Positions 2,950 through 21,729 of a stretch of DNA of 38,346 bases are shown here, one piece after another. The position numbers and the translations under genes are program-made. Positions within the stretch are counted from its first letter, which is position 1. Each line of letters begins with the position of its first letter. Origin of the DNA: a virus; the IMG/VR virus record IMGVR_UViG_3300045988_086125, positions 1 to 38,346 of that record. The stretch is one strand, 5' to 3'. A model generated the notes under the pieces. It ran no database searches, was not told where the DNA came from, and worked only from the letters and a program-made list of their open reading frames with translations.

Positions 2950-3459
2950 TTAAGTCCAGCTCAAACCAACGCTGTTAGTTGTTACGTTGCTTGACGTAAG
3001 GTTAGATACGTTGACCAGTGCTTCATAGACCGTGATTGTTACCACGTTTGACGTCTTAGTGCCAATAGTTGCCTTAATCGTGGTTGCACCAGGCGCAATT
3101 GCCTTGATATTGCCAGACTGATCAACCGTTGCAACCGTCGGCGTGGTACTGGTCAGCGTGTAGTCCCCGTCCGTTTCGTTAGTGGGCGTTACCGTTACGC
3201 TGGCCTTAGCCGTACCACCAACTTCAAGCGCAGTCTTATCAATCGCAATCGTGATAGATTGTACTGGAATTTCGCTCGTAGTTACCGTTACGATGTTCGA
3301 CTTGGCACTTTCGCGCAGCCCGTTGTAACTGCTTACGGCAAAACGATAGGTCGTTTTCGCTTGCAGCCCCGTAACCGTGTAGGTTTTCTTGTCAGTAACT
3401 TCCGCAATCTTAGTAAGTTCCCCGTCAGTGTCTGTACCCTGATAAATATAATACTTCAA
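2950..3459 (-). CDS. baseplate decoration/adhesin module: partial Fn3, Big_2 (Ig-like), partial Fn3
   Basis: TTG start 9 nt after an AAGGAGG RBS. KYYIYQGTDTDGELTKIAEVTDKKTYTVTGLQAKTTYRFAVSSYNGLRES matches Fn3 strands C to G. SITIAIDKTALEVGGTAKASVTVTP...ATVDQSGNIKAIAPGATTIKA is Big_2-like. The product ends VSNLTSSNVTTNSVGLSWT, which matches Fn3 strands A and B. Confidence 0.7.
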   Translation of the reverse strand: MKYYIYQGTDTDGELTKIAEVTDKKTYTVTGLQAKTTYRFAVSSYNGLRESAKSNIVTVTTSEIPVQSITIAIDKTALEVGGTAKASVTVTPTNETDGDYTLTSTTPTVATVDQSGNIKAIAPGATTIKATIGTKTSNVVTITVYEALVNVSNLTSSNVTTNSVGLSWT

Positions 3460-3479
3460 TTTAAATATGCCTCCTTAAT

Positions 3480-4841
3480 TTAGTTGCGCCATTCTAGCCG
3501 CTGCGTGTGTTCATCAATATAGATAGCTCGCAGATCATTAGGGCTTGTCGGCTTGCTGAAATAGCCTGAACCGCCTGCAAGGGCGCTCTTACCTTTGCCT
3601 TCTCCAGTTAGTGCCAGTTGTGCGTTAACATTGCCCAGACTGACTTTAATTGTCTTGTAGCCATCGCGAACATACCATGCACCGGCGCTCGATTCAAAGT
3701 TCGGCGCGTCATCTAGGTAGAAATTACGCGGTAACCGAACCTTAATCGTGTTAGCGTCTGGATACGTAGCCATGCAAGGGACTAGCTTTGTGTTAGTTTG
3801 ACCAAAACCGCTTGGGCCACTCCCAAGCCCGTTTGGCTCGGTACCAATTGCATACTCGTAGTACATGACTTTTGGTTCTGGATAATCACCTTGATTGTGT
3901 ACGATTGTGATTTCGTACCCGTAAAGCAAGTCTTCCAGACTATCAGCCGTAACCATGCTTGCGTTACGCTCGGCAACCATGCCATTAGACAGTGCAATGA
4001 CGTTGGTACCGTCTGGGGTTTCGTCCTTATGCTTAACGCGAATTTGCCAAACAGCGCCATGCCCGTCATCGTAGTTATCCCAACCCTTCGTGATTGCAAG
4101 GTCGTTCGCAGCTAATGCAGCATAACTTTGCATGGTCGGGACATCGCTGAATTGCCATGCTCGATCGTGGAACTGAGCTTGTTTCAGCGTTTCTTGGATT
4201 TGTTGCGTCATCTCCAGCAGTTGATTATAGCGAACGTACAACCCATTCTTAGGGTCGTTCACTTCTGCCATTGCGTCGTTCAACGATTGCTTGTACTTAG
4301 CCAACCATTCGCTGAATTCCTGACTGTACGTTTCGCCCGCTTCATTAAGCTTGTCCTTAATCGCGTTGCCTTTATCGGTTACTTGCTCAAGGATTCGTTC
4401 AAACTCTCCGATATAATCTCGGCCGGCATTCCCAACGTGTGCAAAAAACTGGTCATCGATAACATCAAAATCCATGTCAACGGTTGATACCGTTTGACCA
4501 TCTCGCCCGATGAACCGAACAAAAAACTGTTGCCAGTGTCCAGGCACGTTAAATGTGCGCTCGTCAAAGTGTAACGTTACCCGTCCCAATGCGATTTGGT
4601 CGTTGCGATCATTAGCTTCAACATGGTAGATATGCTTGTGAACGTATCCTTGACTGTCGACACCGCCATATTCGTATTTCCAGCCCCGCATATCAACGGG
4701 AAGGCTGTTGCTGGTGATATACACCGGCAAATAATCGTCCGTATCACCTACACGGCCTTTGAAATAGCCGCTAATATCAAGGATTTGGTCTTGATAGCGG
4801 GTTAAATCAAGCGTTAGCCGTGCTTTTTCTCGTAATGCCAT
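3480..4841 (-). CDS. BppU-like baseplate upper protein ending in the first strands of an Fn3 domain
   Basis: 453 aa, located downstream of Tal. The N-terminus (LTLDLTRYQDQILDISGYFKGRVGDTDDYLPVYI) resembles BppU_N/DUF2479. There is a central coiled coil. The C-terminus is PTSPNDLRAIYIDEHTQRLEWRN. Confidence 0.55.
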   Translation of the reverse strand: MALREKARLTLDLTRYQDQILDISGYFKGRVGDTDDYLPVYITSNSLPVDMRGWKYEYGGVDSQGYVHKHIYHVEANDRNDQIALGRVTLHFDERTFNVPGHWQQFFVRFIGRDGQTVSTVDMDFDVIDDQFFAHVGNAGRDYIGEFERILEQVTDKGNAIKDKLNEAGETYSQEFSEWLAKYKQSLNDAMAEVNDPKNGLYVRYNQLLEMTQQIQETLKQAQFHDRAWQFSDVPTMQSYAALAANDLAITKGWDNYDDGHGAVWQIRVKHKDETPDGTNVIALSNGMVAERNASMVTADSLEDLLYGYEITIVHNQGDYPEPKVMYYEYAIGTEPNGLGSGPSGFGQTNTKLVPCMATYPDANTIKVRLPRNFYLDDAPNFESSAGAWYVRDGYKTIKVSLGNVNAQLALTGEGKGKSALAGGSGYFSKPTSPNDLRAIYIDEHTQRLEWRN

Positions 4842-4855
4842 TCATTCACCTTCTT

Positions 4856-5032
4856 TCATCGTTCGTTCAAAGTGTCTTCGTCAAGGCCGTATGAATCCAG
4901 AAAGCCATCGACTTTATCTTGCTTTGCAGCTAACAGCTCAAAGCCCTTTGCGATAGCTTCTCGAACATCTTTCCCATACTGGGCTTTGCGTATCGTTTCC
5001 GCAATGCTTTTCATATCATCGGTAGTTGCCAT
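4856..5032 (-). CDS. small tail-fibre-region protein (58 aa, below ORF-track cutoff)
   Basis: Hand translation: MATTDDMKSIAETIRKAQYGKDVREAIAKGFELLAAKQDKVDGFLDSYGLDEDTLNER. Its ATG overlaps the Tal stop (TAATG). Confidence 0.45.
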   Translation of the reverse strand: MATTDDMKSIAETIRKAQYGKDVREAIAKGFELLAAKQDKVDGFLDSYGLDEDTLNER

Positions 5033-7323
5033 TAGTTAGCTCCCTTCAACTTATCAACTTCAGCTTTCAATTTGTTAAAGTCCGCTTGCGATACATAGCC
5101 CGCCGGTATCTTATTGTTAATGATCGATTGCAATTGTTTCATATCAAACTTAAGCTGCGTTACATCTTCGCTGCTTGCTCCGTTCTGAATAATCGTAGTT
5201 GTGCTTGACATGTTAGATTGACCGCTCGCTTGAACCTCAGCTACACGGCTAACGATAACCTTAACCCGCTCAAAGTCTTGCGCTTGACGGCTCGTTTCTA
5301 GTTGATAATCGGTCAGCCCTAACGACTTATCGCCGATAGTCAGCGTTGACTTGTGCGGTTGCAAGAGGTCAACTTCTTTTTGCACCACTCGCAGCAACTG
5401 TGATTGCGCTACATACGGGTTGATGAACATATACCGATCAGCAACTTTAAAATGGTCAAAGTTAGGCAAATGCAACTCAACGGCGCTGACTTCCCAGCTC
5501 TCTGGCACTCGTTGTGCGTCAATCCATGCTTTCGCTTGGTTCATCAAGTCGTTAGCATCGGTCACTTCGTTGAACTCAATCGTACCGTTGATAATGCCAA
5601 ACTCTTTTTGCAAATCTGGTATATCGATATAGTCTCGCCCTTGATTGACACTAGTAATCGTTAGTTTTGGCCTAGCAGCATTTGAGTTGCTGACCTCTTC
5701 TTTCTTACTTTCGTCTTCGGATTGCGAACCATCACCACCATTTTTGATTAACGCTTGCGGGTCTAACCAAGTGTCATCGTTCGTGAACGACTTCTTGACG
5801 GCTTCATAAAAATCGGCCTTAGTTACGCCAACGTGCAAGTGATCAGTGTTTCGCCAACCGATAACATCACCGGTTTTGACCTTATCACCAATGTTGACGC
5901 GAATCTGATCGGCACTGCTGAACGCCTCTTGATATACGATATTAAAACCGTCCGTACTATGCGTTACAACATAATTGCCAAGCCCGCCCATGTAGCCTTT
6001 GAAAACTACCGTGCCACCGTGAATAGCATGCACTTCACTACCCGGGTGATCTACGGAACCAAAATCTAATCCATCATGAAATGAATTAGGTCTAAAGCCA
6101 CCATCATAGCCGAATTTTTGGGCTTGGCTAAAACTACCTTCGCCAACGCTAGGAAACGGCCAGCCCCAACCATTTGTTGTCGTCGTTGTCGTGGTATCAC
6201 TAACTGGCCCGTTAACTCGACGGGTACCAGTTGGGCTCCAACCACCTGCAACCGAAATATCGGCAAGCCAATTGGAATCGTTGAACAGCGCTAAAAGCTG
6301 GTGAAAGCCCTTATGAATATCTTCATAGCCCTGTACTTTCCACTTGTCGAACGTTTGTTGGATATACTGTAACAGCCCCGTTGACGGGTGGCCCGCCTGA
6401 GCGTTGCTGTCCCAGTTGTTCGTGACGGTTTCGCTACCCCCAGATTCCTGATTGATACGCCTTAGAACAGCGTTCAACCCGTTCTGGTCAAGGTTGACGT
6501 TCATCATCTTCGCAGCATGCTTAATGGCTTCTGTCCAATCGCCATTAATAGCAGTCGTTGCCCCACCGCCAGTCGTTGTTGTTGAGTTTTCGCCGTCAAC
6601 CTCGACTTTTTGGGGTTCTAACTGTTTACCCAATGGGACGAGCCTAGTTATAACCTTTGTGGGGTCAATCGTAAGGCTCGCTGACTTCATGTTAACTGCT
6701 AACTGGATAGGCGTATCGTTCTTGTGATCGTTGCCAATGTCGGTTACATAGTCAAGCATGTTTGGGCCGTCCGGTTTGTACTCTGTTACCAGATAACCGC
6801 CCAGCTCGTTAATCAGCTTGTCTTTGATTGCGTCCCGTGTTTTTGGATAATCAATTTGCCGATAAGCGTCATCTTTATTGTTGGTAACGTTGCAGTTACG
6901 CAGTTTGAACTGCTTATACTGTGGCACTTGGCTATTGTGGACATCAATCAATGATTGAAGAAATTCTTTCGGTGTTAGCCCAACCGCTTCATAGAAACGC
7001 TGACTGCTATCTAGCAGATACGCTTCAATATCTTCGAACGTGTACGTTCTGATGAAGCGCCCGCTTGATTGCATTTCTTTCTTTGGCTTGATTGCTCGGC
7101 CACGAAACAATAGTTTATCGTCATCATAGACTTCAACGTGCGTGTGCATTGGCCTAACGTTGTCAAACAGCAAGTTATCACGGTTTACGGTTAACTCTAG
7201 ATCATCAATATCAGTTTCTTTGATCGTTAACTTGCCTTCGCTGACCGTTCGATTTACTCGCTGATCAAGCACGATAAAGCCGTTCTTATCAGTTGGTTCG
7301 TTATACCCGATAATGCGATACAT
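5032..7323 (-). CDS. tail-associated lysin (Tal) with inserted lytic transglycosylase-like and M23 peptidase domains
   Basis: 763 aa. The N-terminus is prophage-tail-endopeptidase-like. LRRINQESGGSETVTNNWDSNAQAGHPSTGLLQYIQ is SLT-like. HDGLDFG...HAIHGGTV...GDVIGWRNTDHLHVGV is M23-like. Poly-Thr linkers flank the insert. Confidence 0.85.
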   Translation of the reverse strand: MYRIIGYNEPTDKNGFIVLDQRVNRTVSEGKLTIKETDIDDLELTVNRDNLLFDNVRPMHTHVEVYDDDKLLFRGRAIKPKKEMQSSGRFIRTYTFEDIEAYLLDSSQRFYEAVGLTPKEFLQSLIDVHNSQVPQYKQFKLRNCNVTNNKDDAYRQIDYPKTRDAIKDKLINELGGYLVTEYKPDGPNMLDYVTDIGNDHKNDTPIQLAVNMKSASLTIDPTKVITRLVPLGKQLEPQKVEVDGENSTTTTGGGATTAINGDWTEAIKHAAKMMNVNLDQNGLNAVLRRINQESGGSETVTNNWDSNAQAGHPSTGLLQYIQQTFDKWKVQGYEDIHKGFHQLLALFNDSNWLADISVAGGWSPTGTRRVNGPVSDTTTTTTTNGWGWPFPSVGEGSFSQAQKFGYDGGFRPNSFHDGLDFGSVDHPGSEVHAIHGGTVVFKGYMGGLGNYVVTHSTDGFNIVYQEAFSSADQIRVNIGDKVKTGDVIGWRNTDHLHVGVTKADFYEAVKKSFTNDDTWLDPQALIKNGGDGSQSEDESKKEEVSNSNAARPKLTITSVNQGRDYIDIPDLQKEFGIINGTIEFNEVTDANDLMNQAKAWIDAQRVPESWEVSAVELHLPNFDHFKVADRYMFINPYVAQSQLLRVVQKEVDLLQPHKSTLTIGDKSLGLTDYQLETSRQAQDFERVKVIVSRVAEVQASGQSNMSSTTTIIQNGASSEDVTQLKFDMKQLQSIINNKIPAGYVSQADFNKLKAEVDKLKGAN

Positions 7324-8084: not shown

Positions 8085-10852
8085 TAACTCCACCTATCCT
8101 TTAATGCCGTTCGTTGTCCTAATCGTTGATCGTAACTGCCAGCCGTTGCGCCAACAAGCACGCCAGAATCAAGAATCATCGTTGTATCTTTGCCTGCAAT
8201 TTGACGCAGTAAAGCGTTGTTCTGCATTTGCAAAGTGCTGTCTTGCATGGTCAACGAACCGGCGAACCGTGATTGTACATCGCTTGCCATGCCGTTCAAG
8301 CGGTTAGCAAAACCAGATACATCAGGTTGCATTGCGTCGGTGATTTGCTTGTTCATTGCCAAAACAGACTTTTGAACATCGCCAAAACCATCAACTAACC
8401 CGTTGCCCAGACCGTTCATAATTGCATGACCGGCGGGAATCAGCAAACGCCTGTCGACGCTGATAGGCCCTTTGTGGGCTTTAATCCACTTGCCAATGCC
8501 ACCGACAAACGACTTGACACTTTCCCAAGCCGATTTAAGACCGCCAAGCAAACTGTTCATGATTGCCTTACCGTTAGCCGATAAATCAATATGAGCAACC
8601 GCATTAATGATCTTGCGTCCAACCTGCGCCATTGCGCTGCCTAAGCTACCCATCATTTGCAGAATACCTTTTATCAAAGCAGTTATAATTTGTGCCCCTG
8701 CTGCTATAATCTGCGGTAAGTTGCTAATGATAGCCCCTGCTAATGTGACAATGATTTGTAACGCACTAACCACAAGCAATGGCAGCACTTGTGCAATACC
8801 ATTAATTAGCGCTGTAAGAATCTCTACCCCAGCTTCAATGATCTGTGGCAAATTGCTAATAATAGCATTAGCAAGTGCCATAATGATTTGCACTCCGGCC
8901 GTAATAAGCATTGGCAATACGGTAACAATGGCGTTAGCAAGTGCCATGATAATTTGCAGACCAGCCGTAATGATCATTGGCAAACTTGCAACTATGGTAT
9001 TGATAAGCGCAATCAGAATCTGTACGCCCGCAACTATCAGTAGTGGCAACGCAGCTGTAATCGCTGTGGTCAACGACGTAATGATTTGTGTACCAATCGC
9101 AATGATTTGTGGAAGGTTCTCAGAAATACTGTTAGCAATACCTACAATGACATTAGTTATCATTCCGACAATCAGCGGAATGTTTGCGACAATAGCGTTA
9201 GTTACGTTCGTGATAGTATTGCTTAACTGGTCGAAAACTTGAGTAATGCCATCTGCGTTTAGCTGTCCGGTTTGCAACCAAGCTGTTACAAAACTAATGA
9301 CAGCCCCCGCAGCAAGTCCCCAAGGGCCAGAAATTCCTAATGCAGCTAATCCTATTTTGGTTAAGACGCTAACAATCGTGGAAGCAATACTGCCAATGCC
9401 GCCCATTTTGGTTATAAATCCTTGAATAGTTTGGCTAACACCACTCAATACATTTTTTACCGTGTTACAAGCAACGCTAACAACATCACTAATTTTCCCC
9501 CAAACAGATGTAGCGATTGTCGATAGTGTTTGCCATGCATTTGATAGCCACGAAACAAAAGATTGCCACATTTGGCGCCCTTTTTCAGTTTGAGTGAAGA
9601 AATAGACTAATGCAGCCACAATTGCAATAATAGCTGCAATCACAATCATTCTTACCCCGCCAAAGACTTTAAAGGCAGCATTGAGTTTTTCAATTGATTT
9701 AGTTACTGGGTCAACTCCCAACATAACATCATCAAATGTCATGGTTTTCATAATCGCTTTGAATGTTGAAATAGAAGTTTTCGCACTATCAACAAACAAT
9801 ACAGCCTTCTTCAATAAAGCCATCTGTCCAGCAAATGCACCAATTCCGATAGTTAATGGTATAAGCCAATCCTTGTTAGCGTTAACGAAATCAAACATTG
9901 ACCTCAACGAGTTCAAAATAACCGTCGTTCCTTGCGTAACAATTGGCGTTATAGCGGTAAAAAATCCGTTAATGCCAACTTTCATGTTATCAAGTACTTG
10001 CGCGATAGAACCGAAACCGGCTTTGCTAAAACCATTGTTAATGGCAGTTAGCATGTTTCCAAGGTTCTTTACGACACTAGCTTTCAAGTTCGCAAAACTG
10101 GTTGCAATCCCGGCACTATTTTTCTTTGCAAGTTGAGCAAAACCGTTTTGGCCCTTGTTAAGTTCGATGAATTTATCATTCAGCTGGTCAACTGATATTT
10201 GCCCACTTTGCAACGCGTTATAAAGGTCCTGTTCGGCAGATTTGCCAGTGAAACCAAACGCATTTGCAACCTTACGCAGCGCGATAGGCATAGTTTCCAT
10301 TAACGTCCGGTAACTCATCATATCGACTTTACCGGTTGACAACATTTGCGTGTACTGTTGCAGACCTCGGCTAGTATCAGCAACGCTTGCTCCGCTCGCC
10401 AGAAAGGCATTGTTAAGAGCTAACGCTGACTTACTAGCCTTTGTTGCGCTACCCGTCAATGGTGCTAACTGCTGCGCAACCGAAGTGATATCTTGCAATG
10501 ACGTTGGCAATCCATCAATGCCTTTTTGCATTAACTTGCTTGATTTAGCAACATCCCGCGCCGAATACCCCAACGCGTCCATAACGACTGGATACTTGTT
10601 AAGAGTATCGAAACGGTCAATTGCCCCGCCGATTGAATCTTTAACAACGCTAAATACTTTGCTTGCAACCGCAACAAGCCCTAAAGACGTTGCCAGATTT
10701 TTAACAGAACTGGTTGCCCATGTTGTAGCACTTGCCGTTTGGTTGCTTTGACTAACAACTTTGCTAAGGCTATCAACAGCTGATTCCATCGTTTTGGTGA
10801 AATTTTGATCGACGGCGGAAAGAATCGCCTCGATGCTCATTTCTTGTGCCAT
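8084..10852 (-). CDS. tape measure protein
   Basis: About 922 aa, alpha-helical and Ala/Ile/Leu-rich with internal tandem repeats. It lies downstream of the G/GT chaperones. The ATG at 10852 follows an AAAGGTGG RBS; an alternative GTG is at 10864. Confidence 0.9.
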   Translation of the reverse strand: MAQEMSIEAILSAVDQNFTKTMESAVDSLSKVVSQSNQTASATTWATSSVKNLATSLGLVAVASKVFSVVKDSIGGAIDRFDTLNKYPVVMDALGYSARDVAKSSKLMQKGIDGLPTSLQDITSVAQQLAPLTGSATKASKSALALNNAFLASGASVADTSRGLQQYTQMLSTGKVDMMSYRTLMETMPIALRKVANAFGFTGKSAEQDLYNALQSGQISVDQLNDKFIELNKGQNGFAQLAKKNSAGIATSFANLKASVVKNLGNMLTAINNGFSKAGFGSIAQVLDNMKVGINGFFTAITPIVTQGTTVILNSLRSMFDFVNANKDWLIPLTIGIGAFAGQMALLKKAVLFVDSAKTSISTFKAIMKTMTFDDVMLGVDPVTKSIEKLNAAFKVFGGVRMIVIAAIIAIVAALVYFFTQTEKGRQMWQSFVSWLSNAWQTLSTIATSVWGKISDVVSVACNTVKNVLSGVSQTIQGFITKMGGIGSIASTIVSVLTKIGLAALGISGPWGLAAGAVISFVTAWLQTGQLNADGITQVFDQLSNTITNVTNAIVANIPLIVGMITNVIVGIANSISENLPQIIAIGTQIITSLTTAITAALPLLIVAGVQILIALINTIVASLPMIITAGLQIIMALANAIVTVLPMLITAGVQIIMALANAIISNLPQIIEAGVEILTALINGIAQVLPLLVVSALQIIVTLAGAIISNLPQIIAAGAQIITALIKGILQMMGSLGSAMAQVGRKIINAVAHIDLSANGKAIMNSLLGGLKSAWESVKSFVGGIGKWIKAHKGPISVDRRLLIPAGHAIMNGLGNGLVDGFGDVQKSVLAMNKQITDAMQPDVSGFANRLNGMASDVQSRFAGSLTMQDSTLQMQNNALLRQIAGKDTTMILDSGVLVGATAGSYDQRLGQRTALKDRWS
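8650..9115 (-). repeat. seven tandem 22-aa (66-nt) repeats inside the tape measure gene
   Basis: Read in the protein: LPQIIAIGTQIITSLTTAITAA / LPLLIVAGVQILIALINTIVAS / LPMIITAGLQIIMALANAIVTV / LPMLITAGVQIIMALANAIISN / LPQIIEAGVEILTALINGIAQV / LPLLVVSALQIIVTLAGAIISN / LPQIIAAGAQIITALIKGILQM. Confidence 0.85.
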
Positions 10853-19080: not shown

Positions 19081-19133
19081 TGCTGATCACCCCTTTTCAA
19101 ATAAAAAAGCACTCATAATGAGTGCTCCTGCAT

Positions 19134-19611
19134 TTATACGTATTTCCAGATATAACCATTGGCTGTTTTGCGTTTTCCACGGCAACAAGCAATGACACTG
19201 CTTGACCAAAATCCATGTCGCTGTGCTTCCATTGCAGAAGGGTATGTTTTAACGAACTCCCCTGACTTTGTATATTGAGCAACCTTCTTGCAACGAGTCA
19301 CATTATTTCTTTGCTTGTTTCCGATCTTCACTGCTCGTTTATTATAGCTATTGAATGGTGCTGAAAATTAACATGAAGATATCCACCATTATTGAAATTC
19401 TGTTTCAAGATTGTTTCTTTTGTATAGTAGGTTCCACCTTTAGGCGCTACATGTTTTCTAGGTAAAGTTTTTACTCTTCCTAAATTAGATACAGCATAAA
19501 GGCCCGCATAATTGTTGCCACGAATGGTCTTAACATTTTCCAGACTTCACTCGGTAAAGTCGGGGTGGTTGTATCTTTCCAATAATTCTTTATAATTGTC
19601 ACTGTAATCAT
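19134..19611 (-). pseudogene. decayed HNH-type homing endonuclease (NUMOD4-like N-terminus, catalytic core lost, NUMOD1/IENR1-like C-terminus)
   Basis: Hand translation. ATG at 19611 gives ...PSEVWK. After a frameshift the next frame reads VKTIRGNNYAGLYAVSNLGRVKTLPRKHV...GGYLHVNFQHHSIAIINEQ*. No HNH motif follows. The last fragment (19134..19331) reads VAQYTKSGEFVKTYPSAMEAQRHGFWSSSVIACCRGKRKTANGYIWKYV. Confidence 0.65.
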
Positions 19612-19683
19612 ATCCTTTCTATGGTTACCAGCTCTAGGGTGTTACCAGCACCGCTAGGGCTTTTATTTTACAGTTATATTATA

Positions 19684-20184
19684 TCATTTATTACTATCAG
19701 CTTTATCGCTTTCACGAGTTAACTTGTTCATGATTGCGTCTAAAGCTGTAACAACATCTTGACCGTTTTCTTCAAGCGACTTTGCCCTTGCCTCCGCCAC
19801 TCGTGCATCAGCATTAGCCTTACGAACCTTAGCCCGTGTAAGCTCAGGCGTATCATTATCAGACAGCATACCGGCCATTTTTAGAATAGTAGTTGCTGAT
19901 TGCAACTGAACCATTTCTGATTTAGCTTCTAACAACTCTTTCAGCTTCTTAAGCGCCTTACTTTCGTAGTCATTTTTAACAACAAGTGATCGGTACTGTT
20001 TTTGTGCTGCCTTGAACAACTCTTCGTTTTTCCAACTACTCAAAGTAGACCTGCTTCGGCCAACTGACTTAGCGATTTCTTCATCGGTCAACTCATCTTC
20101 AAACAGCAACACAACCGCTTTTTGACGACGCTTGTCCAACTCATAAAAAGGCCCGTCTTGTCCCTTTTTGTTTACTTTACTCAT
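19684..20184 (-). CDS. terS: terminase small subunit (HTH-containing)
   Basis: 166 aa. The HTH is LTDEEIAKSVGRSRSTLSSWK and the C-terminus is a coiled coil. It is the first gene of the packaging module. Confidence 0.7.
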   Translation of the reverse strand: MSKVNKKGQDGPFYELDKRRQKAVVLLFEDELTDEEIAKSVGRSRSTLSSWKNEELFKAAQKQYRSLVVKNDYESKALKKLKELLEAKSEMVQLQSATTILKMAGMLSDNDTPELTRAKVRKANADARVAEARAKSLEENGQDVVTALDAIMNKLTRESDKADSNK

Positions 20185-20245: not shown

Positions 20246-20425
20246 TCACAACTTCATTCTCGGCGGTTTAATGCTATACCTGACCTTTTTATCGATTTTC
20301 GTCTTAACGGGCTTGTGCCGCTCATTCTCGGCCTTGTGTCGCTCTCTGCATATCCGGTCAGCATAAGCCAACATGATATACTCAGACCGGCTACTGACTA
20401 GCCCATATTTCTTTGTAATAAACAT
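20246..20425 (-). CDS. small basic hypothetical protein (59 aa)
   Basis: The ATG at 20425 follows GGTGAGCG. The longer track ORF (to 20521) would read through a terminator hairpin, so the internal start is preferred. Confidence 0.4.
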   Translation of the reverse strand: MFITKKYGLVSSRSEYIMLAYADRICRERHKAENERHKPVKTKIDKKVRYSIKPPRMKL

Positions 20426-20442
20426 TCGTTCGCTCACCAACC

Positions 20443-20470
20443 AAATAAAAAAGACGGGCCGAAACCCGTC
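20443..20470 (-). terminator. rho-independent terminator downstream of the tRNA
   Basis: Minus strand reads GACGGG-TTTCGG-CCCGTC followed by TTTTTTATTT. Confidence 0.7.
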
Positions 20471-20577
20471 CATTGAAACTGATGCGTAAGCAGCACGCCA
20501 ACGACCACTGTCAACGTACACGCTAAAACTACTTATTAAATCAACGAAAAATAGTTTTATTTTTTGCCCGTAGGCAA

Positions 20578-20665
20578 CGGAAAATGAAGGATTCGAACCT
20601 CCGAACGCTTTTTTCGCGTTACCGGTTTAGCGAACCGGTGCAATCAGCCACTCTGCCAATTTTCC
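20578..20665 (-). tRNA. class II tRNA, Ser(GCU)-like, with C at position 33
   Basis: Folded by hand. Acceptor stem GGAAAAT/ATTTTCC with discriminator G. D arm GCAG..TTGC with A14 and GG. Anticodon stem CCGGT/ACCGG with loop TCGCTAA. Long variable arm AACGC-GAAAAAA-GCGTT. T arm GGAGG-TTCGAAT-CCTTC. No CCA is encoded. Confidence 0.8.
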
Positions 20666-20741
20666 AAAACCCGCCGGCGTTGATAAGGAACACCATGCCG
20701 GAAGGATTATATGCAAAGGATTATGCAACCCGTTTAATTTG

Positions 20742-20755
20742 TGCCATCTCTGGCA
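20742..20755. repeat. 14-bp direct repeat copy 1 (tgccatctctggca; itself a TGCCA/TGGCA hairpin)
   Basis: Exact second copy at 21144..21157, 402 bp away. Both copies lie inside the non-coding block. Confidence 0.9.
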
Positions 20756-21143
20756 AAGGATAGGTAGTGGACTCGCACCACTTTTTGCATGCTGCCAACG
20801 CCGGTAGATCGTTCAAATAACGTTAACAGCAAGCCCACCTGGGACCTTCCAACTATCTGCCGTGTCTTACAGATAGTAACACCGTAAGGCGGAATTGCAC
20901 CGCCTCGCAAATGATCAATATTGGAGCGATTAGGTTTAAGGCTTACGGAAGTGATCATTTGCCATCTTATACGGTATAACAAGCGGTTTCCCGCTCGTTA
21001 GGTAAAAAGTCGCTTTGCAATTCGCGAATATTTTTCTTGCGCATGCAAGCTTAGAAATCAAAGTATGACTAATCTAAACAATCGTCTTGAAAGGATTTCA
21101 TTTCCAACAAAATTTGAAAGACCATCGGAACAGAAAGGTTCTA

Positions 21144-21157
21144 TGCCATCTCTGGCA
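21144..21157. repeat. 14-bp direct repeat copy 2 (tgccatctctggca)
   Basis: Exact match to 20742..20755. Confidence 0.9.
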
Positions 21158-21237
21158 CAATACCAATATACCGCATTTTCAAGGTTTGTTTAATCCCCTC
21201 TTAGTACCCCAGTTGGTACTACCTTATATACCACTTT

Positions 21238-21729
21238 TTAAGCAGTCGCTTTCTTCATGATTGTAAACGTAGGGAATAGCTCTTCAACTTGGTACTTTGC
21301 AATCGCTGTTTCGATCGTTTCTGAGAACTCATAGCATGCAAACTTTTCCGACTTATGCCAGCTCTTGTTGCTACTGATATGCAGCAGCTCTTTGACGTCT
21401 TCCACTTGTTCCCGTTTCACAAACCGGTTTTTCAGAATAACTCGGCTTTCTTCACTCAAACAATTGTTGATTGCGTCATACACCGCATTTAATGCCCGTG
21501 AATACTCCGTGTGAGCGATAAAGGCGTCTTCGTTGTGATTTCCACCACTACCACCGAAACCGCCGTCAGCAGACAATGATGGGCTTTTAATGTCTCCTGA
21601 CCCTGCCTTGCGCAAAATATGGCTAAATGTCCGCTTGTTGAATCCATCGTCAAAGAAGAAATCGCGCACCGCTTGACGGGTTGCCTGCTCATCGATTTCG
21701 TCAAATAATTCTGCTTGTTTAACTGCCAT
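21238..21729 (-). CDS. ArpU-family late transcriptional regulator
   Basis: 163 aa. LFDEIDEQATRQAVRDFF...IKSPSLSADGGFGGSGGN...RVILKNRF matches the ArpU pattern. It is the last gene before the packaging module. Confidence 0.75.
   Translation of the reverse strand: MAVKQAELFDEIDEQATRQAVRDFFFDDGFNKRTFSHILRKAGSGDIKSPSLSADGGFGGSGGNHNEDAFIAHTEYSRALNAVYDAINNCLSEESRVILKNRFVKREQVEDVKELLHISSNKSWHKSEKFACYEFSETIETAIAKYQVEELFPTFTIMKKATA

Follow-up and report, generated by a model that had tools for sequence, protein, structure and literature searches.

Among bacterial RNAs whose function is unknown, ROOL and GOLLD rank with the largest, and the only clues to them have been their residence in phages and the tRNAs nearby. 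ROOL is a multi-junction non-coding RNA of about 0.5-0.6 kb from Lactobacillales and Firmicutes prophages, often lying beside tRNAs and with no associated protein; its model comprises consensus stems P1-P19 with pseudoknots, its hosts span several phyla, and it forms a homo-octameric RNA-only cage. GOLLD (>0.8 kb) is likewise a phage or prophage RNA found near or around tRNAs, joins a conserved 3' domain to a variable 5' domain, and has its expression linked to the lytic phase, with a reported rise at lysis (PMC12286853). Here, we analyzed a locus in the same niche in the virus record IMGVR_UViG_3300045988_086125 (38,346 nucleotides (nt), hereafter the window; all coordinates are positions in it, and all genes around the locus, like the features mapped below, lie on the minus strand). 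Its order is a late activator gene, 571 nt without a credible gene (20667..21237), a tRNA-Ser(GCU), ~100 nt, an intrinsic terminator, a 59-amino-acid (aa) open reading frame (ORF), terS and terL. The gene-free block between the activator gene and terS, which an earlier note on this DNA had pointed out, is indeed the largest non-coding stretch of the window, the remaining gaps being ≤368 nt by a crude ORF tiling. We conclude with high confidence that this block is a functional structured RNA distinct from ROOL and GOLLD, which would make it a third, unrelated large RNA family in their niche. The same note had named a candidate ROOL/GOLLD-class giant RNA; the idea was right at the level of class (the element is large, conserved, structured, tRNA-abutting and on the gene strand), but the assignment to those families was wrong, as their models were negative.

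The Rfam 15 covariance models were run at the gathering score on the whole window, where the tRNA alone matched, and with relaxed filters at E ≤ 10 on 20300-21400, where no ROOL (RF03087), GOLLD (RF02032) or other large-RNA match appeared. ROOL and GOLLD were equally without a match in the divergent relatives L016, L099 and L093 (E ≤ 10) and in 55 further related loci (gathering score). Both models recovered their positive controls: the ROOL of L. salivarius pMP118, located through the published alignment of that family, scored 130.4 bits (gathering score 99.1), and that of GOLLD, from Acinetobacter phage NC_027332, scored 217.6 bits (gathering score 150). Group I/II introns, RNase P RNA, tmRNA, T-box, OLE, HEARO, raiA and 6S gave no Rfam match, and the best non-tRNA matches over the RNA body in the E ≤ 10 search were isrP (E = 0.45) and a miRNA model (E = 8.4); weak matches to Plastid-psbI-rps4, sX4, L20_leader and SorY fell on the tRNA or the terminator and were set aside as chance or tRNA-derived. 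A highly divergent ROOL or GOLLD, beyond the reach of narrow Rfam models, would agree with the published descriptions in its size of about 0.5 kb, Lactobacillales prophage setting, tRNA adjacency and ornate fold (PMC5737381, PMC12286853). We regard it as extremely unlikely, given these negative searches beside working controls, the absence of a match of covariance model (CM) R1, which recognizes the present core, on the ROOL locus, and the absence of the invariant motifs of the present family from the searched parts of the published ROOL and GOLLD alignments, which is partial evidence.

The present RNA resembles ROOL in length and context (about 0.55-0.66 kb, phage, near a tRNA), with ~492 nt, or 571 nt including a promoter spacer. 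It differs in that it does not match the ROOL stem model, its conserved blocks are others, T-arm-like hairpins and an internal tRNA-like junction are integral to it, and its host range is far narrower (L. mucosae phages). With GOLLD it shares a conserved 3' domain joined to a variable 5' domain, but the family is shorter (about 0.35-0.56 kb). Moreover, tRNAs are optional insertions in a GOLLD linker, whereas every member here has a tRNA or tRNA-like unit at its 3' end, and T-arm sequences in the GOLLD alignment occur as insertions only and at no consensus position, whereas tRNA-like modules belong to the consensus of the present family. The difference in T-arm sequences also speaks against a cryptic GOLLD.

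Family members were collected by exact-motif scans (AGGTCCCAGG, 35-65 nt, GTGCGAGTCC; also AGGTCCCAGG..GTGCGAGTCC..ACCTATCC) and with a 174-position covariance model. The motif scans yielded 112 loci, reduced to 67 non-redundant cores in 11 clusters, which were grouped as type A (including the present window), type B and type C; the types share a common 3' core of ~220 nt, differ in their 5' domains and have exchanged modules, and the RNA is ~490 nt long in the window and about 350-560 nt in relatives. All 17 IMG/VR contigs with a 96-100% identical activator have the block, at 83-92% nucleotide identity. On the minus strand, 20667..21237 folded with a minimum free energy of -187.1 kcal/mol, compared with -153.1 ± 6.6 kcal/mol for dinucleotide shuffles (z = -5.17; 0/100 shuffles as good), while the plus strand of the gene-free block gave z = -3.10, and G-U pairs and GNRA loops were found solely on the minus strand. 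Covariation in homologous regions, which the earlier note had proposed as a second check, was present. Across 40 diverse sequences, 99.3% of cells in the five helices of the shared core can pair, versus 37-47% when the 3' partners are slid, and compensatory (both-sided) changes occur at 11 of 30 pairs, several of which show three or four pair types (covariation score 0.292 versus 0.111 in shuffles, 0/500 as high). In type A, a curated 70-pair structure pairs in 99.4% of cells versus 32-50% when slid, and six pairs are altered on both sides; since types A, B and C represent few lineages that recombine as modules, independent substitution events are fewer than these cell counts suggest. We rejected a coding function, in agreement with the note's reading that the block has no credible ORF, and likewise a decayed gene, which the note had named as a refuting outcome: a single ORF of any size exists (82 aa, 20734..20982), 13 of 17 relatives have it broken by a frameshift or a stop, and its variable columns spread evenly over the three codon positions (24/25/27). 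Together, the negative ROOL and GOLLD models, the positive covariation and the exclusion of a decayed gene indicate a distinct RNA family.

Covariation supports a fold that opens with a 5'-terminal hairpin (P1) and a variable 5' domain. A three-way junction that resembles a tRNA and includes a T-arm comes next, followed by hairpin H3 and by an invariant junction domain in which another T-loop hairpin lies; the fold also has several GNRA hairpins. In the window, the RNA body covers 20667..21158 (~492 nt, the 3' end being set at the 5' end of the tRNA) and includes three GNRA hairpins, two T-arm-like hairpins and one internal tRNA-like three-way junction. P1 (21143..21158, GUGCCA-GAGA-UGGCAU) carries a GNRA loop and reads GUGAUA-GAAA-UAUCAC elsewhere in the family, with two pairs altered on both sides. 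The variable 5' domain that follows includes the GNRA hairpin GAGCGG-GAAA-CCGCUU (20981..20996), replaced in relatives by GCAAG-GAAA-CUUGC, in which the stem is compensated and the loop class unchanged. RNAalifold also proposed long-range pairs with the first 25 nt of the block, rejected as lying upstream of the inferred RNA start, and pairs between alignment columns 257-261 and 556-560, rejected as an alignment artefact of the GAAA hairpin.

In the internal tRNA-like junction (20879..20977), 20970..20977 pairs with 20879..20886 to form the acceptor-like helix H1, and 20952..20962 pairs with 20907..20917 to form the long arm HX. Its third element, T-arm-like hairpin 1 (20888..20904, GGCGG-UGCAAUU-CCGCC), has a 5-bp stem and a 7-nt loop and abuts the 3' strand of H1 exactly as in tRNA. 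The loop follows the pattern U-N-C-R-A-N-U and is UGCRAUU or UUCGAYU across the family. H1, HX and T-arm 1 are paired in 99-100% of cells within type A, and in the core alignment H1 and T-arm 1 are paired in 98.5-99.5% with compensatory changes, as befits a tRNA-like acceptor/T-arm unit: at H1 pair 9-100, 22 sequences have C-G and 15 have U-A, and in the T-arm stem one pair varies as GC/GU/AU/CG, a different one as CG/AU/UA. It is not a full cloverleaf; the tRNA model gave no match there at E ≤ 10, and one arm of variable length takes the place of the D and anticodon arms. HX is the 11-bp inverted repeat of the earlier note, which had interleaved it with a 7-bp ccgtaag/cttacgg pairing into a pseudoknot-like topology. 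Both pairings are present, but the second competes with the nested H1 (AUACCGUA/UACGGUGU), which has cross-type compensatory support, whereas the seventh pair of the pseudoknot forms in 1 of 18 sequences (the window only) and the other six are conserved but never covary; this pseudoknot is possible but unsupported.

Hairpin H3 (20853..20876) pairs CUAUCUG with CAGAUAG around a 10-nt loop containing ACAC, and five of its seven pairs are altered on both sides within type A (e.g., CUAUCUG..CAGAUAG versus CUACUCG..CGAGUAG); it was scored in type A alone because MAFFT aligns it inconsistently between types A and B. The most conserved domain is a junction (20758..20850) closed by H6 (GGAAGGU, 20844..20850, with ACCU(A)UCC, 20758..20765; one pair altered on both sides). 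It holds the near-invariant CCCAGGYGGG (20834..20843) alongside an A-run, helix H4 (20827..20834 with 20787..20794; 5/7 pairs altered on both sides) and T-arm-like hairpin 2 (20766..20782, AGUGG-UGCGAGU-CCACU; 2/5). The string GGAAGGUCCCAGGYGGGC is nearly invariant between types that otherwise differ by >40%, and CM R1 scores 147 bits on 20758..20979. Towards the 3' end lie the hairpins UGCCA-GAGA-UGGCA (20742..20755), whose loop varies as GAGA/GCGA/GAAA/GGGA/GCAA and is always GNRA, GGGUU-GCAU-AAUCC (20718..20731) and the terminal CCGGC...GCCGG (20674..20701); the 3' hairpins within 20674..20731 are 99-100% paired, with one-sided G-U to A-U changes. The stems listed in the earlier note at 20766..20782, 20853..20876 (7 bp), 20888..20904 and 20982..20995 (GCGG-GAAA-CCGC) all recur in this structure on the minus strand. 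Type B has an additional upstream tRNA-like module with an acceptor-like helix spanning 125-184 nt, for which 29 sequences show three compensated variants (GCAUCAU/AUGRUGC, GCAUCG/CGAUGC and GCACCG/CGGUGC), and type C shows a fourth variant of this long-range helix (GCGCCG/CGGUGC, 106-nt span).

Immediately 3' of the RNA, 8 nt after its last hairpin, begins tRNA-Ser(GCU) (20577..20666), which was called by ARAGORN with a cloverleaf and readable anticodon and scores 51.6 bits on the Rfam tRNA model (RF00005). Throughout the family this slot always holds a tRNA or a minimal acceptor/T-arm element between the constant flanks GGCGGGUUU and UUGCCUACGGGCAA (L001-L017, L093-L117, L144-L210 and the window), and the tRNA is exchanged as a cassette among otherwise near-identical phages. 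The contents range over Ser-GCU, Tyr-GUA, Asn-GUU, short 67-nt tRNA-like elements and bare acceptor/T-arm minihelices; ARAGORN called 36 normal and 7 aberrant tRNAs, and 19 slots were not callable. The 67-nt elements have a shortened anticodon arm, are missed by ARAGORN and score 35-51 bits on the tRNA model, and at some type-B loci the slot is reduced to an acceptor stem, one hairpin and a T-arm. An acceptor/T-arm unit is the minimal substrate of RNase P. Conservation of that unit rather than of decoding is our main reason for suggesting that one role of the slot, if not its only one, is to free the large RNA and fix where its 3' end lies. In the 3' trailer behind the tRNA (20447..20576), UUGCC-UACG-GGCAA (about 20564..20576) forms a conserved hairpin with a UACG tetraloop, and the trailer also contains about 90 nt of conserved sequence as well as the intrinsic terminator GGACGGGUUUCGGCCCGUC-U6 (20471..20447); the tRNA and the clean terminator had both been recognized in the earlier note. 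In type B, tRNA-Ser is followed by a further tRNA-like element (L099:4270-4470; acceptor GACGG/CCGUC, T-arm CAUGG-UUCGAUC-CCAUG), and type-B loci have a separate intrinsic terminator of their own before the late genes.

These features invite the reading that the block is a decaying tRNA island, made of pseudo-tRNAs and spacers with no function of its own beyond one live tRNA. The T-arm-like hairpins with GGUUCGAnUCC-type sequences, the acceptor-like helices, the degenerate tRNAs in neighbouring slots, and the tRNA-Asn, tRNA-Trp and tRNA-like element found at the same position in other Lactobacillaceae phages would all fit such an origin. However, neutral decay would not keep 99% pairing through compensatory changes, hold loops within the GNRA class or leave non-tRNA blocks such as that of the H6 strand nearly invariant, and the internal module is not recognized as a tRNA at E ≤ 10; we therefore consider an island improbable.

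An RNase P-released structured RNA would have parallels. In MALAT1-mascRNA, MEN-beta and the tRNA punctuation of polycistronic transcripts, a long RNA is followed by a tRNA-shaped element, and an RNase P cut sets its 3' end. As in the present family, the element may lose decoding and keeps its acceptor and T arms; these systems differ in being eukaryotic or organellar, many members of the present family carry an apparently functional tRNA, and processing here is proposed from the layout. The bacterial Y-RNA-like YrlA and the tRNA-like domain of tmRNA have an acceptor-like helix on a T-arm with a 7-nt T-loop and no normal anticodon arm, and some YrlA-type or tRNA-mimicking RNAs are phage-encoded. 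They resemble the present RNA in that such an acceptor/T-arm module is embedded in a larger non-coding RNA, but there are two or three of these modules in the present RNA, which is also of much greater size. No Rfam match to either family was found at E ≤ 10, ARAGORN called no tmRNA, and no rsr/Ro or smpB gene lies nearby.

The RNA probably starts near 21158, a position that we infer from the promoter scan and that gives the ~492-nt length. The earlier note had treated 572 nt as RNA; the greater part is structured RNA, but the first ~80 nt (21159..21237) look like promoter and operator DNA. A weak -35-like TAAACA (21192..21187) and a -10 TATATT (21170..21165) are separated by 16 nt. In every variant type, a -10-like hexamer lies 2-3 nt upstream of a conserved TATYGTG and the first hairpin, being TATATT in the window and TATAAT, TACAAT, TAATAAT or TTAAAC elsewhere in the family, and at type-B1 loci it directly follows the activator stop codon. 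Within the promoter stretch, GTAGTACC-N6-GGTACTA forms a perfect palindrome (21222..21202), which the earlier note had listed as a stem at 21203..21220; the pairing exists, but as a palindrome of the promoter region and not as an RNA stem. It is centred ~54 nt upstream of the predicted RNA start, is conserved across all type-A relatives, and might be bound by the ArpU-family activator or by some other regulator. Variants without an activator gene directly upstream have four direct YTAGG repeats at ~10-11 nt spacing just upstream of the -10 box (L093 about 9470-9540; same region in L097, L099, L113 and L152), resembling the repeat arrays bound by the TP901-1 late activator Alt.

Could the whole block act as DNA, be it a cos/pac site, an origin or clustered sites for protein binding, with its inverted repeats working in the double strand? 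Its place right ahead of terS, a frequent location of cos sites and late-promoter operators, would suit this, as would the likeness of the palindrome and the YTAGG repeats to protein-binding sites. Features of a DNA site nevertheless do not extend beyond the first ~80 nt, except perhaps in the trailer behind the tRNA, whereas the remainder has compensatory changes that tolerate G-U and not A-C, GNRA and UNCG loops that are specific to one strand, and a T-loop conserved at 7 nt, which makes a DNA-level element very unlikely.

The position of the unit bears on when it may be made. The activator (163 aa, 21238..21729), just downstream of which the RNA unit begins, matches the 'transcriptional activator' family PHROG 248 (E = 2e-24), reaches 41 bits on NCBIfam TIGR01637 phage_arpU (cutoff 43.1; the type-B orthologue scores 64 bits), and has no match in a Pfam search. 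The ArpU label of the earlier note is thus reasonable by PHROG but borderline, falling just under the phage_arpU cutoff. Activators of the RinA/ArpU/Alt type turn on a late promoter directly upstream of terS (PMC3152322), and the RNA-tRNA unit is therefore probably the earliest product of late transcription. After the terminator come the 59-aa ORF as first late gene (20246..20425) and terS (19684..20184; PHROG 7344, E = 1e-47).

The main competitor to an RNA with a function of its own is a cis-acting leader of the ArpU-activated late operon, in which the fold would govern read-through of the terminator into terS as an attenuator or a processive antiterminator, following a logic like that of the lambda PR'-tR' or HK022 put RNAs and with the tRNA as a passenger. 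The RNA is co-oriented with the late genes and lies between them and the activator gene with its presumed late promoter, as expected of ArpU/RinA late promoters upstream of terS (PMC3152322); the strong terminator stands right before the ribosome-binding site of the first late ORF, the promoter scan found no promoter-like site from there to the 59-aa ORF and terS, and type-B relatives share the layout with a different terminator. Known late-operon leaders (lambda PR'-6S-tR', HK022 put and those at RinA/ArpU/Alt promoters, PMC3152322) resemble the locus in lying between activator and terS with a terminator before the late genes, but they are short and have no tRNA-like or ornate structure, and a conserved multi-domain structure of 350-560 nt with tRNA-like modules far exceeds what an attenuator or put-type element needs. 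No alternative pairing was seen between the conserved core and the terminator stem, the core is absent from terS-related phages of other lactobacilli, and in some relatives whole genes (ParB-N, QueT and others) stand between the RNA-tRNA unit and terS, which uncouples the RNA from the late genes. On balance, a cis-acting leader appears unlikely, if more so on the grounds of size and uncoupling than of position.

We narrowly favour a different chain of events, in which the locus specifies a large, unclassified structured phage RNA that is expressed late, released by tRNA-processing enzymes and active in trans. Transcription from the promoter with the weak -35 would start near 21158, just downstream of the late activator, so that the RNA would be made at the onset of late gene expression. 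As the unit is ordered RNA, tRNA-Ser, 100-nt trailer and terminator ahead of terS, most transcripts may end at the terminator while a fraction reads through into the late genes. Cleavage by RNase P where the neighbouring tRNA or tRNA-like element begins would then free the RNA with a defined 3' end, which would explain why the acceptor/T-arm is always kept while the anticodon arm and the identity change or decay. Least certain is the last step, in which the freed RNA, as a compact particle that mimics tRNA, would act in trans at a late stage of infection. It might be a decoy or scaffold for factors that recognize the acceptor/T-arm, such as tRNA-processing, tRNA-modifying or tRNA-targeting defence enzymes, and would then parallel what is suspected for ROOL and GOLLD; this idea is doubtful. 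Tentatively, the family might represent a third independent class of giant phage RNA, built of concatenated tRNA-like modules, released by RNase P and engaging acceptor/T-arm-reading proteins in trans.

Several points weigh against the favoured chain. The RNA 5' end, the processing step and the action in trans are all deduced from sequence features, an order of late promoter, RNA, terminator and late genes would be just as natural for a cis-acting leader, and tRNA mimicry is proposed without a specific target. Many of the compensatory changes separate the few recombining lineages A, B and C. The family is also narrow: an exact-motif scan of 185,579 representative genomes gave Limosilactobacillus mucosae DSM 13345 as its sole real match, the other 25 of 26 motif matches being GC-rich chance matches.

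If an RNase P-released RNA of tRNA modules acting in trans were confirmed, the tRNA association of ROOL and GOLLD would be tied to a concrete, testable mechanism. The present family offers a fixed, interpretable position as the first product downstream of the late activator and before terS, integral tRNA-like modules, and a natural series of 3' partners from full tRNAs down to bare acceptor/T-arm stubs, which together turn a vague tRNA association into specific hypotheses of RNase P release and tRNA mimicry. Since its hosts, among them L. mucosae DSM 13345 and A1, are gut lactobacilli that can be cultured and carry complete prophages, expression, processing, structure and deletion phenotypes are directly testable.

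Members came from L. mucosae prophages and gut metagenomes (IMG/VR, metagenomes, PLSDB and representative genomes), and 46 of 67 motif matches in metagenomes were real by nhmmer. The family is absent from Rfam 15 and unannotated in RefSeq, and no prior description was found in the literature searched, whose incomplete coverage makes this weak evidence. A large ornate phage RNA beside tRNAs is a kind already known; the family itself, the integral tRNA-like modules and the obligatory, swappable 3' tRNA handle are new. PLSDB contains the same phage as a 39,346-bp circular 'plasmid unnamed3' of L. mucosae strain A1 (NZ_CP058957.1, L213), in whose RefSeq record ~980 nt over the RNA locus lack an annotated gene. 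Judging by contig names, single host genomes may carry two prophages, with a type-A RNA in one and a type-B RNA in the other (UViGs 2630968579_000003/_000004 and 2654588121_000002/_000001; L014/L094 and L011/L110).

Outside this range, searches of the INPHARED phages with queries of types A and B recovered homologues of the tRNA alone. Of the new loci from a viral scan with GTGGTGCGAGTCCACTA, four (L074, L076, L090 and L091) were discarded for want of further similarity, L104 and L106, found with the second motif pattern, were chance matches, and CM R1 matches of 12-28 bits in other Lactobacillaceae phages proved to be tRNA-like elements in tRNA islands and not clear members. Among these, terS-related phages of other Lactobacillaceae have tRNA-Asn, tRNA-Trp or both, and next to them on the 3' side a tRNA-like element that keeps D and T arms and has no anticodon arm (L063:1330-1542, L065:1822-1913, L056:1947-2038 and L057:1580-1747; CM R1 only 21-28 bits). 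These elements show AUUGU after the acceptor 3' strand, the same as in the present core.

The neighbourhood of the unit holds further genes in some relatives. In L213, a gene with a ParB-N domain, two hypothetical genes and a QueT gene lie between the RNA unit and terS (3403-5235). QueT is a queuosine-precursor transporter, and the Tyr and Asn cargo tRNAs of the family are queuosine-modified species. In some type-B phages, toxin-antitoxin morons of MazF-like and HicB-like type are inserted ahead of the RNA unit, behind the late activator region (L099:3067-3420 and L097:6247-6735 on the minus strand; PHROGs 1936 and 497). Lastly, in the window itself, the gap of ~600 nt between terS and terL (19081-19683) contains a 65-aa ORF (19134..19331) with an I-HmuI NUMOD-like domain (Pfam PF22083, E = 1e-4), probably a homing endonuclease remnant.

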